Shown here piece by piece: positions 2,191 through 11,143 of a stretch of 64,000 nucleotides of DNA; position 1 is the first letter of the stretch, and every line of letters starts with the position of its first letter. The translations under genes and the position numbers were made by a program. This stretch comes from Gemmatimonadales bacterium. GTDB lineage: Bacteria > Gemmatimonadota > Gemmatimonadetes > Gemmatimonadales > GWC2-71-9. The DNA is taken from positions 544,001 to 608,000 of the forward strand of contig JBBCJC010000002.1 in the NCBI GenBank assembly GCA_037189525.1, read 5' to 3'. The notes beneath the pieces were generated by a model. The model was not told the DNA's origin. It did no database searches and saw only the letters and a list, made by a program, of their open reading frames with translations.

Positions 2191-2913
2191 TCAGCGAGGG
2201 ATGGTAAAGAGCCGACCCCACCGCACGTTGGAGAGGATCGGAAGCGGCTTGTAGGTCTCGGGGTCGTAGCTGTAGTACACGATGATCGGCGAGCCCTCGA
2301 CGTTAGCCCGTGGCAGGAACCCCCAGTAACGCCCGTCGTACGACTCGCTCCGGTTGTCTCCCATCACGAAGTACGTCTCCGCCGGCACCACGATGGGACC
2401 CCAGTCGTTGGGCGTTGGTACGTACGTCGCGGTGTCCGCACCGACCAGGTAGCGCACCTGCCAGCGCCGGATCTGCGCGTCGCCGGCCGGATCGGACGGC
2501 ATCAGCCGCGGGCCGGTGGGTACCCACGGTTCCTCGATGGTTGCCCCGTTCCGGACCAGAATCCCGTTCTGCATGGCAAGGGTGTCGCCGGTCATGCCCA
2601 CGATCCGTTTGACGACGGTCAGGTCCGGCGTCTCGACTGACTCGAAGACGACGATGTCGCCCAGTTTGGGTTGCCGGATGGCCGGTAGCCGGGCATTGGT
2701 CAGCGGAATCCGGGGGCCGTAGAGCAGTTTATTGACGAAGAGGACGTCACCGACGAGGAGCGTGTTCTCCATGCTCGACGAGGTGATCCGGAAGGCCTTG
2801 AACAGGAAGGAACTGACCAGGAACCAGATGGCCAGTGCGACCACGATGGTCTTGGCCCAGCTCAAGAGCCATCCGCCGGCGCCGGTGGGCGCCGCTTTCG
2901 CGTTTTTGGCCAT
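2191..2913 (-). CDS. lepB: Signal peptidase I
   Basis: One TM helix, SSSMENTL (catalytic Ser), VKRIVG (catalytic Lys), MGDNRSESYDGRYWG. Confidence 0.95.
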   Translation of the reverse strand: MAKNAKAAPTGAGGWLLSWAKTIVVALAIWFLVSSFLFKAFRITSSSMENTLLVGDVLFVNKLLYGPRIPLTNARLPAIRQPKLGDIVVFESVETPDLTVVKRIVGMTGDTLAMQNGILVRNGATIEEPWVPTGPRLMPSDPAGDAQIRRWQVRYLVGADTATYVPTPNDWGPIVVPAETYFVMGDNRSESYDGRYWGFLPRANVEGSPIIVYYSYDPETYKPLPILSNVRWGRLFTIPR

Positions 2914-2938
2914 GCTCAGATCCCTTCCGTGCCGGTCG

Positions 2939-4087
2939 TCAGATCTTGAGGATCCAGCCCCGTCGTTCGAGGCCGAGCAGGATCAGGTACCAGACCAGCA
3001 CGAAGCTGAGCGCGTAGGCGAGTGACGCCGGTTGGGGAGGAAGCCATGCCTCGAATGTAGTCTGGTAGATGGCTCGTTGGAGCGGGATCGACTGCCCGTC
3101 CACGGGGACCCGAATCAGGCTCCCCATCAGCTTGGCCATCAGCCCCGATCCCGCAAATGCCACCATTGGATTGAGTCCATAGGTCACCAGTGGCCGAGCC
3201 CAGCGGTGATGGCCGCGGACGTCGACCACCCAGCTGACGGTGGCGAGGGTCAAGGCGGCCAGCCCGGCCGAGAGAAGGACGTAGGAACTGGTCCAGAGGC
3301 TCTTATTGATCGGGAAGACCCATCCCCAGACCGCCCCGCCCACGGCCGCAAGCGCGCCGCCGGCAAACAGCCCGTTGAGTCGCTCGGCCAGCGGCAGCTC
3401 GCGCTGCATCCATCGACCGGTCAGCACACCGAGCAGGGTGGTGCCGATGGCGGGAAAGGTCGAGAGGATGCCCTCGGGGTCCCAGGTGCGCGACTGCGAC
3501 CACAGGTGCCCGTCGAGTACGGCCCGGTCGAGCCATGCGGCCAGAGTCGCTTCGGGCGGATCGAGCGTCGCCGGTCCGATTCCTGGTACCGGAACCAGCG
3601 TCATCGCGGCCCAATAGCCAAGCAGCAACGCGGCAATCGTCAGGGCCACGGTACGGCTCGGCCGGCGCCAGGCCAGCAGCGCAGCTGCCGCGTAGCAGAC
3701 CCCGATCCGTTGCAGCACCCCGGGAATGCGCAGCGTCTCCAAGCGCTCCAGCGGAAAGAACGGAAAGGCCGCCAGCCCCAGGCCGATCAGGGCGATCAAG
3801 CCGCCGCGGCGCAGCACCTGGCGGCGGATGGCTCCGTCGGATGCCCCGGCTGACGCGCGTCGGCCGAGTGAGAGTTCGGTGGTGATGCCGACGATGAACA
3901 GGAAGAAGGGAAAGACGAGGTCGGTGGGTGTCCAGCCGTGCCAGACGGCGTGGCGCAGCGGCGGATAGATCGCTGCCCAGGTGCCGGGGTTGTTGACCAG
4001 CAGCATGCCGGCGACGGTTGCGCCGCGCACGATGTCGAGGGAGAGCCAGCGACCGCGCTGTGTCTGATGGCCAGCGATCGGGGTCAT
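2939..4087 (-). CDS. Heparan-alpha-glucosaminide N-acetyltransferase-like membrane acyltransferase (NagX/DUF5009-like)
   Basis: [39 protein letters not shown], DPEG and [11 protein letters not shown] motifs. Confidence 0.88.
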   Translation of the reverse strand: [382 protein letters not shown]

Positions 4088-6172: not shown

Positions 6173-7125
6173 GATATCTCCCCCTCGATGAGCTTCTCGG
6201 CCGTTGCGACGAAGAGCAGCGGGCCTTTGGTGGTTGCGTGCGGTGGTAGTGAACGATAGGTGGTCCGGCCGAATCCAGCGGCCTGGCACCAGCTCCGGAT
6301 CGTCTCGGCATCGAAGCCGAGCCACTGGTGACCCATGGTTTCGCGATAGGCCGCCTGTTCGTGCGGCATCATGTCGACCACGATGAGCTTGCCGCGGTTG
6401 CGCAGGATTCGAAACGCTTCCTGCGTAGCGCGCGCCGGTTCGGGAAGGTGGTGCAGGACCAGCGACATCACGGCGAGGTCGGCCGATCCGGGTTCGAGCG
6501 GCAGCGCTTCCAGCGTGCCGTGGCGGCAGTCGACGTTGGCGAGGTCGCGGCAGCGCTCCGCAGCAACCTGCAGCATCGCATCGGATTCATCGATGGCGAC
6601 CACGCGGTGGACCAGCGGCGCCAGCCCCGCAGTCAGCTGCCCGCTGCCACATCCCAGATCGGCGATGGTCCATTCCGGGTCGAGGAGTCCGCCTAGGCAG
6701 AGCCATTCGGCGGCAGGACCGAACAGTTCGGTTCGGAGCTTGTCCCATTCGCCGGCGCTACTCGAGAAAAAAGCCTGGCTCCGGACCCGGCGTTCGGCCA
6801 GGATCGTGGCCAGGCGCGCGGCGTCGCGGATTGCCGGGGGTGTGCCCGCCAACTGTCCGCGGACGACCGACCAGAGCTGGCGTGCCCCGTCGTCCAGAGT
6901 GGGGACAGCCAGCCGGTACCAGTTGCTGGTTCCGTCGGCACGACTGGTAATCCACCCCTCATCGGCCAACACCTTCAGATGGCGGCTGACGGTCGACTGG
7001 GGAAGCTGCAGGATGGCTCTAAGTTCATTGACGACAAGATCTTGCCGCTCCAGCGCCAGCAGGATGCGGCACCGGATCGGGTCCGAGAGAGCGGCCAGGC
7101 GATCGAAGACGGCTAATTGTGTCAT
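6169..7125 (-). CDS. ArsR-family HTH fused to a class I SAM-methyltransferase-like domain (SahR-like regulator)
   Basis: [11 protein letters not shown]...[11 protein letters not shown] winged HTH, then DLGCGSG SAM motif and HQWLGF; coupled to ahcY; start set at MTQL. Confidence 0.9.
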
Positions 7126-7171
7126 CCGTATATCCGGATGATATGTTAAAGCTAACAGCATTGTGCGTCAA
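7122..7171 (-). promoter_or_regulatory. Sigma70 promoter and palindromic operator of the sahR-like/ahcY operon
   Basis: TTGACG (7171-7166), 17-nt spacer, TAACAT (7148-7143); 20-bp palindrome TCATCCG-N6-CGGATGA (7122-7141) over the predicted TSS and start codon. Confidence 0.75.
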
Positions 7172-7435
7172 GACACGTTCCGGATTTAACCATCAAACAA
7201 AAAGGGAGCTCTTCGACTCCCCCGTGCTAGGCCTACCCACACGCATGATGGTGGAGCTCTGGTGACGCAACGACTTCTGCGAAGCTGCCCAATGTCGAAA
7301 TGGTTGTACACACACTTGGTAGACAAGACCTATTAGAGTTTCAGTACGCGCTGTCGATGGACCACCCTTTTATGGCGTTTTCATGAAGTTATCGTCATGT
7401 GACAACGAAGAGCATCGCAAGCTGCCTAGGAACTA

Positions 7436-7464
7436 TTGACAAAGTCACCACTAAATCGTACCGT
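7436..7464 (+). promoter_or_regulatory. Candidate sigma70 promoter for the island cassette
   Basis: TTGACA, 17-nt spacer, TACCGT. Confidence 0.55.
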
Positions 7465-7528
7465 GGTTTTGTTCACTGTGTAACAGCCTTTTCGGTTCGC
7501 GGTTGGTCAGCACCGAGGTCTGATACGC

Positions 7529-8770
7529 ATGATGAAAGCATGCGCCGAGATCCCCAAGCAACTTCCTACCGGGCTTTGTCAACAAAGCCTCCACACCCGT
7601 ACGGTCGCGATTCACCGACGGGTCTTTGAAATAAAATTCGTGTCTGCTGCGTTGATCATATTTGCGATCGTACCAGTGGTCTCTTGCATTAGCGGGGGCA
7701 ATGATCCGACTAGATTTGATGGTACTTGGACTCCTACCCGCTCAGTCTCCGACGGTGGGACGGCTCAGCTTTCCCTTAAGCAGATACAGACACTTGGCTC
7801 GGCCGATGGTCCAATAGTATTCGGCCGTATTGGTCGCGGCGCGATTAGTGGTGACAGCATTCTTGTTGTCAATGATATGGTAGCCTGTGATGTCGTCTTT
7901 ATTCGTCCGGTCTCGCGCACTCTGCTGGGTCGGTTCGGCCAGTGTGCTTCTGGGCCGGGAGGATTTCGCGCTATCTCATCGCTCCAATTCTATGGTGACA
8001 CTCTAGTCGTATTCGATGGGGGGGTGCGCCAGCTCATCTTTGTGGAGCCTCCGGGGCGTGAGATATATCGCGTAACTATCGATCCAACCGCAAGTATTTT
8101 GTCACCTGTCGAAGTGTATGTCGTTGACGACTCATCACTCGTCGTGGTGGCTTCTGTGCGTTCTGGTACGGAAGATGATGCGGGCGGGTTTTTACTATCT
8201 CTGGTCGACCGTCGAAACGGTAAAACGATCCGACAGGTGCTACGTCCTCCTCCAGTTGGACGGGGCGCTCTTACCCCCACATTCAGTAATGTTACGGCTT
8301 GCGTGGCATCGCCAAACGATGATCGTCGCATATTTGTTGCCAATCAGTGGAAGTTTCAGGTGGTCAGTTTAGGACTGCCTGAACTACGCAATGGAACATC
8401 GTTTGAGAGGCCGGTCTCGTGGGTCCGACCTGTCTCCCACCCCAACAATCCCAATTCACTGCTTCCATCTACTGGTGTGTTCGGCGTTGCTTGCGCGTCA
8501 ACTTTCTTTGCTGTGTGGTATTCAGGGCGGATGGGACGTCATCCCTCCGCTAAGTTTCCCTATGCGCACCTTGCTATTTGGGATTATACAGGGAATTTAG
8601 TTTTTGAATCGGATAAGCGGGAGGACAGCGGTATTTCGTTAGAACGCGTGCTGGTTGCTACTGAAAATCGGCTGTTCTTCAGAGGGGAGGATAGCCGAGG
8701 GATACCCATTGTCGTTGAGTATGGTTTTCGAGATAGTGACAGTGAGATCTTTCGTGCTGGCCACCGGTAA
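7529..8770 (+). CDS. 6-bladed beta-propeller (TolB/NHL-like) protein, probable lipoprotein; true start probably further downstream
   Basis: Hydrophobic stretch ending VVS-C; FGQCASGPGGF resembles the GxxGxGPGEF propeller motif; repeated blade-like strands (GDSILVVND, GDTLVVFD, IWDYTGN). Confidence 0.7.
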   Translation: MMKACAEIPKQLPTGLCQQSLHTRTVAIHRRVFEIKFVSAALIIFAIVPVVSCISGGNDPTRFDGTWTPTRSVSDGGTAQLSLKQIQTLGSADGPIVFGRIGRGAISGDSILVVNDMVACDVVFIRPVSRTLLGRFGQCASGPGGFRAISSLQFYGDTLVVFDGGVRQLIFVEPPGREIYRVTIDPTASILSPVEVYVVDDSSLVVVASVRSGTEDDAGGFLLSLVDRRNGKTIRQVLRPPPVGRGALTPTFSNVTACVASPNDDRRIFVANQWKFQVVSLGLPELRNGTSFERPVSWVRPVSHPNNPNSLLPSTGVFGVACASTFFAVWYSGRMGRHPSAKFPYAHLAIWDYTGNLVFESDKREDSGISLERVLVATENRLFFRGEDSRGIPIVVEYGFRDSDSEIFRAGHR

Positions 8771-8788
8771 TGTAGTCCTGTAATCGGA

Positions 8789-9430
8789 ATGAGGGCTATA
8801 GCGATGACATCTCCAACGCCGCCCTTTATACGACTAGTCTTGATAGCGGCGATCTTATCCAACATGGGTCTTGCGTGGCGCAGCATCCATGTAGAACGAA
8901 AGATCACGAACCGCCTCCAAAGCGCAGATTCGCTAGTGGGTGCACTGTCGGCTGATAAGAAAACTGCTGCCTACGAGCGTGCAGCCCTCATACGATCGTT
9001 GGGCAGAATGCCATTGAGTCAGCCATTTCTTTCTGGAATACCATCGTTTGATTCCACGACTAGGATAACCTACGAACCCGCGGACGGCGTCTACTACCTA
9101 ATCTCTCCAACGTGTCGCGCTTGCGATATCAACTACCCGTTTTTGGATTCACTGGCGCGCCATACCCGGCTTCGTGTTGTCGCCATCTCTCGCGATGCCT
9201 CGCCGTCTGACTTATATCGATACGTTGAGGACCGCAAGTTCACCTTCCCACTCCTTGCCGCCCCTGCGGGCTATGTCGAGCATATAACACCACAATGGGC
9301 AACCCCATTATCTGTCATAGTCCTCGGAGGAAAGCTGCACTCTATAGTTGCGGGCCGCCTCGACGATAACACCCAGCGTGATCTTTTTGCCCTGGAGCCC
9401 CAAGTGACGGAGTCGAATGGAAGGAAATGA
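8789..9430 (+). CDS. Membrane-anchored thioredoxin-fold (TlpA/redoxin-like) protein
   Basis: N-terminal TM helix; ISPTCRAC (CxxC), VVAISRD, FTFPLL and ATPLSVIV (cis-Pro loop). Confidence 0.75.
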   Translation: MRAIAMTSPTPPFIRLVLIAAILSNMGLAWRSIHVERKITNRLQSADSLVGALSADKKTAAYERAALIRSLGRMPLSQPFLSGIPSFDSTTRITYEPADGVYYLISPTCRACDINYPFLDSLARHTRLRVVAISRDASPSDLYRYVEDRKFTFPLLAAPAGYVEHITPQWATPLSVIVLGGKLHSIVAGRLDDNTQRDLFALEPQVTESNGRK

Positions 9431-9474
9431 TTTTCTGATGTTCGCGTCGTGATCTTTTCTCAAAGGAGAGGAAA

Positions 9475-9747
9475 ATGATACGTATTCATGCTCGTACATG
9501 GCCCAAGAAGCTAGCATTGGTTTTTGCTCTTCTTGTTCCTCCTCTGGCCGTCACTTTTTTCCCTCGGGATGCTCAGGCGCAATTTTGGGATTTCTGCGAC
9601 TACACCACTCATGGGGTATGTTGTGAGTGTATCTATGGGATGGGGCATCCCGATGACATCAGTGACTGCGCATTTGGGGCGATTATTGGTAAGGAGACGT
9701 GTAATGCCTATTCGAACATTTGTGTCGGATATTGCCAAGTGGGTTAG
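9475..9747 (+). CDS. Secreted cysteine-rich peptide (35-aa signal peptide, 55-aa mature part with 8 Cys)
   Basis: Strong SD AAAGGAGAGG; Sec signal ending AQA; mature QFWDFC...YCQVG; followed by a terminator. Confidence 0.8.
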   Translation: MIRIHARTWPKKLALVFALLVPPLAVTFFPRDAQAQFWDFCDYTTHGVCCECIYGMGHPDDISDCAFGAIIGKETCNAYSNICVGYCQVG

Positions 9748-9819
9748 TGTGTGGGAACTGAAGGCTTGTTAGGCTCCAGCTCTTTAGCGTCAAAGGTTGT
9801 TCGAGGTGATCGATTAAAG

Positions 9820-9860
9820 AAATGGCGGGGAAGTCAATGAGACTTCCCCGCCATTTTCTT
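9820..9860. terminator. Bidirectional intrinsic terminator
   Basis: 16-bp stem AAATGGCGGGGAAGTC/GACTTCCCCGCCATTT with A- and T-tracts, between convergent genes. Confidence 0.85.
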
Positions 9861-9886
9861 GTCCTAGCAGACTGTCAGATTAGTGA

Positions 9887-11143
9887 TCAGCCGGGTCCGA
9901 GGTTCGGATTGTTATCACGCTCGGTCCGCGGAATCGGGAAGCAGGTCTGGTCGCTGACCGGGGCAAAGCCCGGCTTCCAGTACGTGCTGCCCGGCACCGG
10001 AACATTCCGTACCGCAGCGCCGTTGCGGCGGAGATCACCCAGCCGCTTGCCTTCCAGGTAGAACTCGACGGCGCGCTGATCTTCGAACTCGGCCAGCACC
10101 GCGGCATCGCCCGTATCTCCGCTGTATGCCGGCTGGTCGTTGGCTGCACGGCGAGCCTGGATCAGGTCGAGCATGGCTGCAGTGCCCTGCGCCTCCGCTG
10201 CGATGTAGTCGGCCTCGAGCTTCGAAGCCAATCGGATCGGCGTCGCGAACCCGGTGTACTTGTTCTGGATCGCGTACGGTATGCCGCGCTGGGTGGCGTA
10301 GGCCGCATCCTGTGGCAGCAGGTTGGACGGCGCGATGCGCCACGGTAACCGCGGATCGTCGATCCGGTACGCCGGGGGGACGGCGTTGGAACCGCGATCG
10401 GCGATGAACTGCCAGATCCGGTTGCCGAGACGGGCACGCTGAGCGAGATCGTCGAAGGTGGTGACATTGTAGACGAAACCCGCCGGCACGGCATTGGCAT
10501 CCGTGAGCGCGTTCGGCTTTCGGCCGGCCTGGAGGTGCGCACGAGCCCGTCCAACCAGCGCCGCACGAGCAATCGAGAGACCCTCCGCGTTGTTGAGCGC
10601 GGTGCCCTGCGTGTTGGCTGCCGTGAAATGGGCGACGGCGGAGTCGAGCAACTGAGCAGTCGACAACTCGGGACCGCTCACCACCGTGCCCGAGCAGAAT
10701 TGCTCGGCCAGGTTGAGGAATGCCCAGCCCAGGGTGTGGTGCGACCGGATGTACGCGACGTTCGATGCCGCATTCGGAAGCTCGATACCCAGGACGAGGT
10801 ACGCCTGGGCAATGCCCTGGTGGACCGGGAACCAAACCTCGTCACGATGGCTGGTATTGGTCGGGTCGACTGCGCGCCGGCCGAACTCGTTCCGGGTCGG
10901 GAACGTTTCCGACACGTCCGACTCTCCGGTGAACCAGCCGGAGTACATGATCAGCCAGCCGTATGCCGCCGAGAAGGACTGCGAGGCCGAGGCCGCCAGA
11001 ACGGGTGCGTCTTCAGGCGGATTGGTGACTTTGACGTCGACCACCGTCGGGTTGGTCACCTGTAGCCACTCGGTGCAACCGCCCAGGCCGAGCCCGAGCG
11101 AGGCGATGGCGAGGGCCCGGGAGAGCGTGTTAGTGCGAATCAT
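9887..11143 (-). CDS. RagB/SusD-family outer-membrane lipoprotein
   Basis: Lipobox LGGC; C-terminal QRAVEFYLEGKRLGDLRR and FPIPRTE; directly after susC-like gene. Confidence 0.9.
   Translation of the reverse strand: MIRTNTLSRALAIASLGLGLGGCTEWLQVTNPTVVDVKVTNPPEDAPVLAASASQSFSAAYGWLIMYSGWFTGESDVSETFPTRNEFGRRAVDPTNTSHRDEVWFPVHQGIAQAYLVLGIELPNAASNVAYIRSHHTLGWAFLNLAEQFCSGTVVSGPELSTAQLLDSAVAHFTAANTQGTALNNAEGLSIARAALVGRARAHLQAGRKPNALTDANAVPAGFVYNVTTFDDLAQRARLGNRIWQFIADRGSNAVPPAYRIDDPRLPWRIAPSNLLPQDAAYATQRGIPYAIQNKYTGFATPIRLASKLEADYIAAEAQGTAAMLDLIQARRAANDQPAYSGDTGDAAVLAEFEDQRAVEFYLEGKRLGDLRRNGAAVRNVPVPGSTYWKPGFAPVSDQTCFPIPRTERDNNPNLGPG

Follow-up and report, generated by a model that had tools for sequence, protein, structure and literature searches.

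A three-gene cassette for a six-bladed beta-propeller lipoprotein, a redoxin and a putatively exported eight-cysteine peptide recurs in Gemmatimonadota

We analyzed a 64,000-nucleotide stretch of a Gemmatimonadales genome (contig JBBCJC010000002.1 of assembly GCA_037189525.1, positions 544,001 to 608,000; hereafter the window), in which an earlier note had picked out a low-GC cassette of three co-directional genes and suggested a dedicated disulfide-rich peptide system. The three genes of the note are present as open reading frames (ORFs) on the plus strand: a propeller lipoprotein at 7529-8770 (413 amino acids), a redoxin at 8789/8804-9430 (213 or 208 amino acids from two possible starts), and a peptide precursor at 9475-9747 (90 amino acids). 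Our sequence comparisons indicate that this trio represents a real, well-delimited family that recurs in Gemmatimonadota. The 2.7-kb trio is an insertion that is absent from the same site in the two closest relatives. From the pattern of gene presence and absence we tentatively suggest that the trio consists of a toxin (the peptide) and its antidote (the propeller) with their own redoxin, to which we give somewhat less than an even chance.

The window peptide had no homolog at E ≤ 10 in a direct search and matched no Pfam or NCBIfam model. Therefore, we searched for the family through the neighboring genes. A propeller with 57% identity to that of the window, and a redoxin with 65%, were each encoded on an outside contig of 2,876 bp, probably one and the same. 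A propeller profile was then run over 401 genomes of the phylum, with at most 4 candidates scored per genome, and gave 22 matches at E < 1e-25, followed by a gap to general propellers at E > 1e-18. Searching 401 class genomes with a peptide profile added five more loci. A further 18 came from scanning genome and metagenome collections for motifs; the 57 loci of these scans were reduced by dropping 15 apparent duplicates, 22 weak matches, and the peptide-less loci L197 and L207, which are cut by contig ends. A metagenome scan with the first, four-sequence profile found no match. Among the propeller-motif matches, 23 of 27 named genome loci carried Gemmatimonadota names, and the remaining 4 were weak and lacked the trio.

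We found the peptide in 22 of the 45 propeller-subfamily loci (truncated in L151) and the redoxin in 21 of these 22; the locus lacking it, L196, is a 2-kb contig. Among the 23 peptide-less loci, the redoxin was present once, in L105, as a Cys-less copy broken by insertion sequence (IS) elements. The presence of the redoxin follows that of the peptide rather than that of the propeller. The earlier note had held that propeller and redoxin loci lacking adjacent Cys-rich peptides would speak against it; these counts, with eight-cysteine signal-peptide ORFs and redoxins adjoining homologous propellers, bear out its suggestion of a dedicated system. Three gene orders occur: propeller-redoxin-peptide, as in the window (7 loci), peptide-propeller-redoxin (6 loci), and redoxin-peptide-propeller (8 loci, mostly with a second peptide). 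The trio is spread over 13 propeller clusters at a 40% identity cut, although kin among these are not independent. None of 20 control loci with general propellers had the eight-Cys pattern, the redoxin, or the four-Cys propeller signature described below. Seven trio loci were found by the propeller motif alone (L166, L177, L186, L189, L192, L194, and L199) and stand outside the peptide and redoxin alignments and profiles. The eight-Cys pattern was widened after three of these seven had been seen; over all fetched loci the widened pattern matched 24 distinct cores, every one at a family locus. The reverse search agreed: in all 5 new genomes that the peptide profile turned up, the peptide adjoined a propeller and a redoxin-like gene, and among the loci examined there was no family peptide without an adjoining propeller.

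The propeller-only loci show the opposite side of this asymmetry. They arise at several points of a quick tree, including one intact clade of 8 loci, and their propellers keep the invariant cysteines despite the absence of the redoxin. Genome-wide searches of five genomes of the intact clade gave neither a redoxin match nor a convincing peptide match; the same redoxin profile was positive in genome G110. By analogy, such persistence of an intact propeller without peptide or redoxin resembles that of receptors and immunity proteins. Because the redoxin follows the peptide, the propeller can stand alone, and no peptide was seen without the propeller, the pattern fits a private foldase together with a binding partner that is of use even if another cell supplies the peptide. 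The propeller could instead be an export chaperone that folds the peptide or hands it to an export route, giving no protection, while the peptide acts elsewhere. That every family peptide adjoins a propeller fits such a chaperone, but intact propellers long kept in genomes without a detectable peptide do not, and we consider this reading rather improbable. The intact propeller-only copies L098, L099, L101, L102, L168, L169, and L171 are located close to genes for an ABC transporter and an S8-like peptidase, recognized by eye in the translations, within long arrays of general propeller lipoproteins. Other loci are breaking up through frameshifts, stops, or IS elements (L094, L096, L097, L104, L105, L149, and L151), and their number indicates fast gain and loss of the cassette.

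The peptide gene is preceded by a strong Shine-Dalgarno sequence, AAAGGAGAGG, at 9462-9471 on the plus strand, 3 nucleotides 5' of the ATG. The precursor (9475-9747, plus strand) has a Sec-type signal (9475-9579) ending in AQA before the Gln of the mature peptide (9580-9744). The mature peptide has 55 amino acids, is acidic, and carries the pattern C-7-CC-1-C-12-C-10-C-6-C-3-C, exactly as the earlier note had read it; its reading of a very strong ribosome-binding site was likewise correct. A six-frame scan of the whole 4.65-Mb genome gave no match to the eight-Cys pattern other than the window peptide. Across the family the scaffold is C-xn-CC-x-C…C…C…C…C behind a Sec signal. The eight cysteines align in 13 of 13 full precursors, and a Gly before Cys6 is the sole further near-constant residue. 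In six same-length pairs of family peptides, the proportion of synonymous differences (pS) was 0.38-0.96 against 0.07-0.39 for nonsynonymous differences (pN), and the ratio of the corresponding rates (dN/dS) was 0.13 in the single unsaturated pair; the window peptide itself has no relative close enough for this comparison. The family peptides are therefore real genes under purifying selection. In close pairs the identity of the peptide tracks that of the propeller (0.95/1.0, 0.71/0.78, and 0.58/0.59).

Other searches with the peptide were less informative. An ESM Atlas search returned unnamed clusters of 66-71 amino acids with scores of 0.77-0.81, which are leads at best, and the single match of the peptide profile among Protein Data Bank (PDB) sequences, a nanobody, was put down to chance. 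A single-sequence AlphaFold2 model of the mature peptide was unusable, with a predicted local distance difference test score (pLDDT) of 41. The earlier note had also given weight to the N-terminal Gln and the C-terminal Gly. This did not carry over to the family: only 2 of 24 distinct peptides end in Gly, and both pyroglutamate and amidation were rejected as family features.

The net charge of the 24 distinct cores runs from 0 to -8, so that all are neutral or acidic. A peptide that is not cationic and is kept under purifying selection would also suit a pheromone or identity tag, with the propeller as its receptor and the propeller-only genomes as listeners. The propeller-alone asymmetry is the same as that expected for immunity, and regulator genes lie near some loci (L186 and L194). 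However, the propeller is a lipoprotein that lacks any cytoplasmic portion, and the genes beside the trio include no conserved kinase or transducer. As immunity does not require a transducer, and the trio loci have no conserved one, we prefer toxin and immunity to such signaling. A signal-receptor pair is unlikely in our estimate, if slightly less so than the export chaperone.

The redoxin (8804-9430 from the second start, plus strand) is predicted to be membrane anchored and ResA/TlpA/MauD-like, with an N-terminal hydrophobic helix, a stalk, the active-site motif CRAC at 9113-9124, and a cis-Pro-type TP (ATP). Its family profile matched ResA structures as the best PDB matches (E 4.5e-10). The MauD and ResA models matched the redoxin below their cut-offs; for MauD, the window copy scored 16.1 bits against a cut-off of 188.6, and 4 of 6 redoxins matched weakly. 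The cassette redoxin is a different protein from the housekeeping TlpA, which in relatives is encoded beside rpe/tsaD. All 20 readable redoxins at peptide loci retain the first Cys, one further copy being a frameshifted fragment. The earlier note had called this protein a CxxC redoxin, which is true of the window copy but not of the family, where 10 copies (including that of the window) have CxxC and 10 have CxxS. Because the attacking Cys is kept and the second is dispensable, general thioredoxin chemistry would fit an isomerase or holdase, and the CxxS copies suggest such a dedicated role rather than that of an oxidase or reductase. The host has VKOR and gave no match to DsbB.

The likeness of the redoxin profile to reducing ResA/TlpA proteins also raises the idea of metal handling, in which the redoxin would keep the eight cysteines reduced, the acidic peptide would bind a soft periplasmic metal, and the propeller would receive or deliver it. 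Acidic, Cys-rich cores with CC-x-C would suit this role. On the other hand, disulfide scaffolds typically combine an even, invariant number of cysteines with loops that vary widely, and CxxS proteins cannot cycle as ordinary reductases. Neither a metal transporter nor a metal sensor was seen as a conserved neighbor of the trio (the arsR-methyltransferase gene next to it belongs to the host site), and the CxxCH heme motif is absent. We regard metal handling as less probable than either the signal pair or the chaperone. A peptide resembling c-type cytochromes, the usual ResA clients, was rejected separately, as no His follows CC-x-C in 22 of 22 aligned cores.

The propeller gene (7529-8770, plus strand) encodes a six-bladed NHL/DUF5128-like lipoprotein with a lipobox Cys at position 53. 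Since this Cys is residue 53 of the longest ORF, the start codon is uncertain. An AlphaFold2 model built with 115 sequences (pLDDT 87) has 24 blade strands, which make up a six-bladed propeller. Foldseek matched it with probability 1.0 and a target template-modeling score of about 0.7 to the NHL domains of TRIM71, TRIM2, and Brat, and its top matches include two Bacteroides proteins, the DUF4221 protein BVU_1028 (3s9j) and BF0058 (4raa). In an alignment of 115 homologs, whose rows are full-length profile matches of our choosing, Cys120, Cys139, Cys258, and Cys322 are the sole invariant columns (115/115), against a mean column identity of 19%; Cys53 is present in 103 and Trp274 in 107. To judge by the strand map, the four invariant cysteines likely form two disulfides; in the model, Cys120/Cys139 and Asn272/Trp274 sit in top-face loops. 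The window propeller had no match to DUF5128 (PF17170), and 9 of the 115 homologs matched it weakly (best E 3.7e-5), so by sequence it seems to be only a distant relative of that family. PAL-type amidating enzymes have conserved Zn-binding histidines and a Gly-extended substrate. No His is conserved in the propeller (the best column reaches 33% of the 115), and with Gly-ended peptides so rare we rejected a PAL-type role.

A propeller, a small disulfide-rich chain, and a thioredoxin-fold protein are the same three kinds of parts as in mauB, mauA, and mauD of methylamine dehydrogenase (MADH). The trio could thus make a two-subunit protein, a periplasmic or surface enzyme or binding protein in which the peptide plugs into the propeller and the redoxin is a MauD-like maturation factor. 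The weak MauD matches, the divergence of peptide and propeller in step, the acidic and conserved peptide, and the lack of a visible exporter are all consistent with this. However, there is no conserved Trp pair for tryptophan tryptophylquinone (TTQ), and 6 of 13 cores have no Trp at all, so the TTQ reading was rejected. MauG, MauE, and radical-SAM genes were not seen in the gene maps, and the sole MauE-like match in the genome lay below the cut-off on another contig. The absence of a conserved His, the intact clade of 8 propeller-only loci, and several loci that pair two different peptides with one propeller also argue against it. MauB propellers have seven blades. This is the likeliest of the four alternatives, and it is still unlikely.

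If the trio is a toxin and its antidote, the peptide is likely exported by Sec, folded to four disulfides by the membrane-tethered redoxin, and bound by the propeller. In the first step, which is quite probable, signal peptidase I would release the peptide into the periplasm, where the first Cys of the redoxin would catch it in a mixed disulfide and reshuffle wrong pairs, with general oxidizing power from the VKOR pathway of the host. In the second, to which we give somewhat better than an even chance, the folded peptide would dock on the modeled top face of the propeller at the Cys120/Cys139 and Asn272/Trp274 loops. In the third, the peptide would act on the envelope of other bacteria, and lone propellers would be orphan immunity genes; taken overall, this step is slightly more doubtful than the toxin-antidote proposal as a whole.

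Several observations weigh against a toxin and its antidote. None of the 24 peptide cores is cationic, unlike cationic membrane-active peptides. No exporter that could take the peptide out of the periplasm was seen conserved beside the trio in the gene maps. Divergence of the peptide in close pairs does not outpace that of the propeller; this and the purifying selection on the peptides give no hint of an arms race. Some orphan propellers are plain decay products, with a peptide remnant in L096 and an IS element beside L164. Of the 23 peptide-less loci, 5 have less than 900 nucleotides on one side before the contig ends, and one control locus had a weak peptide-profile match (E 0.009). The redoxin could also serve the Cys pairs of the propeller itself. 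The toxin-antidote activity and the binding of peptide to propeller are putative, and the part of the toxin-immunity reading that our analysis covered is the genomic asymmetry.

The cassette lies between an arsR-methyltransferase gene and a susD gene. The closest genomes by the flanking arsR-methyltransferase, G005 and G021 (90-92% protein identity), have an empty site, where the two genes directly adjoin. The left flank is 88-89% identical to these genomes in nucleotide sequence, and the alignment breaks off at about 7150 and picks up again at about 9883. Because the empty site fixes both edges, the low-GC inserted cassette (plus strand) extends over approximately 7150-9883, rather than the 7190-9860 of the earlier note, which was right about the cassette itself. 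Its lower G+C content was also confirmed: 0.51 overall in the cassette versus 66% in the flanks, 0.50-0.54 in 500-nucleotide steps across 7001-10000 versus 0.60-0.70 in nearly all flanking steps, and 0.46-0.55 at third codon positions of cassette genes versus 0.77-0.80 in flanking genes. No close paralogs of the trio genes are present in the host genome. There is no integrase or transposase within the cassette.

A terminator hairpin with a perfect 16-bp stem (9820-9856), common to the trio and the convergent susD, agrees with the terminator claimed by the note; its folding energy is -32.5 kcal/mol (z -7.1), and 0 of 200 shuffled sequences were equally stable. The candidate promoter, TTGACA-17-TACCGT at 7436-7464 on the plus strand, is present as claimed and has a perfect -35 box. 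However, its -10 box is weak (3 of 6 consensus matches) and a consensus scan did not list it, so this prediction carries little weight. A single terminator-like hairpin stands at the empty site. In the window, a worn copy of this resident hairpin lies at the left junction (7198-7224, listed as terminator-like on the minus strand) and aligns with that of the empty site, and an intact copy lies at the right junction. The hairpin around the cassette thus appears duplicated (window 7198-7224 and 9820-9856; L239:4800-4889; L217:2479-2553). A signal peptidase I-like gene lies at 2191-4087 in DNA of normal G+C, 4.6 kb left of the cassette.

The family may give the clearest access to a broader class that has so far gone undescribed: Sec-exported, conotoxin-like miniproteins with four disulfides on a new eight-Cys scaffold, each with a private CxxC/CxxS redoxin and a cognate six-bladed propeller that reads or neutralizes it. 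We regard this broader proposal as doubtful. If it is true, repertoires of receptors or immunity proteins for such peptides would account for the dozens to hundreds of unexplained propeller lipoproteins in Gemmatimonadota and for the NVEALA/DUF5128 arrays in Bacteroidota. Some class genomes contain 100-258 first-look propeller-profile candidates, which suggests very large propeller repertoires. General propellers are often near secreted proteins with a six-Cys CxxC...C...C...C...C head and a C-terminal tail (L043:9147-9536, L093:503-928, L083, L115, and L121), possibly a sister system on another scaffold. That the eight-Cys scaffold is this head plus an extra pair fits the spacing, but the profile-profile probability was 0.2% and the idea is unsupported. 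Other redoxin or DsbA-like genes occur with general propellers and signal peptides of six to eight cysteines in other spacings (L045:851-3219, L052:4600-6683, L053:3778-8791, L046:4000-7630, and L102:1547-1816). The wider class has several scaffolds in Gemmatimonadota. At L204:202-1555 (the same gene as L179; 31-32% G+C, in a record labeled Clostridia), a six-Cys secreted peptide of 66 amino acids is encoded immediately upstream of a distant propeller, and the two may be a counterpart from outside the phylum.

Animals and plants are well known to have disulfide-rich miniproteins with foldases dedicated to them; in bacteria such miniproteins are rare. The family offers a small three-gene kit in which one fixed scaffold comes in 24 natural peptide variants, and it ties a job to six-bladed propeller lipoproteins, which are abundant in the phylum and unexplained. 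Its orphan propellers allow a direct look at immunity versus eavesdropping. Because neither Pfam and NCBIfam nor ordinary homology search picks up the peptides, mining for peptides that are made by ribosomes and then posttranslationally modified (RiPPs) or for bacteriocins would likely miss them.

Among known systems, in the NVEALA neighborhoods of Bacteroidota, too, a six-bladed propeller lipoprotein adjoins a small secreted protein. The earlier note had drawn this link, and it holds as an analogy in parts, with the weak DUF5128 and Foldseek DUF4221 matches on its side. However, 0 of 13 peptides matched the NVEALA Pfam model (PF14055) at E ≤ 0.1, and the trio differs in its fixed eight-Cys scaffold, its four invariant propeller cysteines, and its phylum. 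Our search of openly available full texts found no published account of NVEALA and no description of the trio. A term search of a graspetide survey (PMC8939145) likewise gave no hit for propeller, NVEALA, MauE, thioredoxin, or disulfide. Bacteroidetocins, class IIf bacteriocins, resemble the trio in that a compact cluster encodes both a peptide containing Cys and a thiol oxidoreductase dedicated to it; this enzyme, which is needed for their full activity (PMC6671954), is a precedent for the redoxin. As described there, they have a double-glycine leader, an ABC peptidase-transporter, a five-helix membrane protein, four cysteines, and no immunity. The trio, in contrast, has a Sec signal, eight cysteines, a propeller lipoprotein (the word propeller is absent from PMC6671954), and no ABC transporter. 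With the AxA-type signal of the window peptide, and with no ABC peptidase-transporter beside the trio loci in the gene maps, a class II bacteriocin type was rejected.

The mau cluster (MauB, MauA, MauD, and MauE) likewise combines a propeller with a small, disulfide-rich exported chain and a thioredoxin-fold maturation factor; MauD, which serves the MADH small subunit with its six disulfides (10.64898/2026.03.05.709764), is a further precedent for the redoxin. The trio differs in a propeller that is six-bladed and lipid anchored, a peptide of about 50 amino acids without the Trp pair, and no MauE or MauG in view. Finally, ResA, TlpA, and StoA share with the cassette redoxin the N-terminal anchor, the thioredoxin fold, CxxC, and the TP motif. 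What sets the cassette redoxin apart from them is its long stalk, the CxxS in half of its copies, and its tie to a peptide gene.

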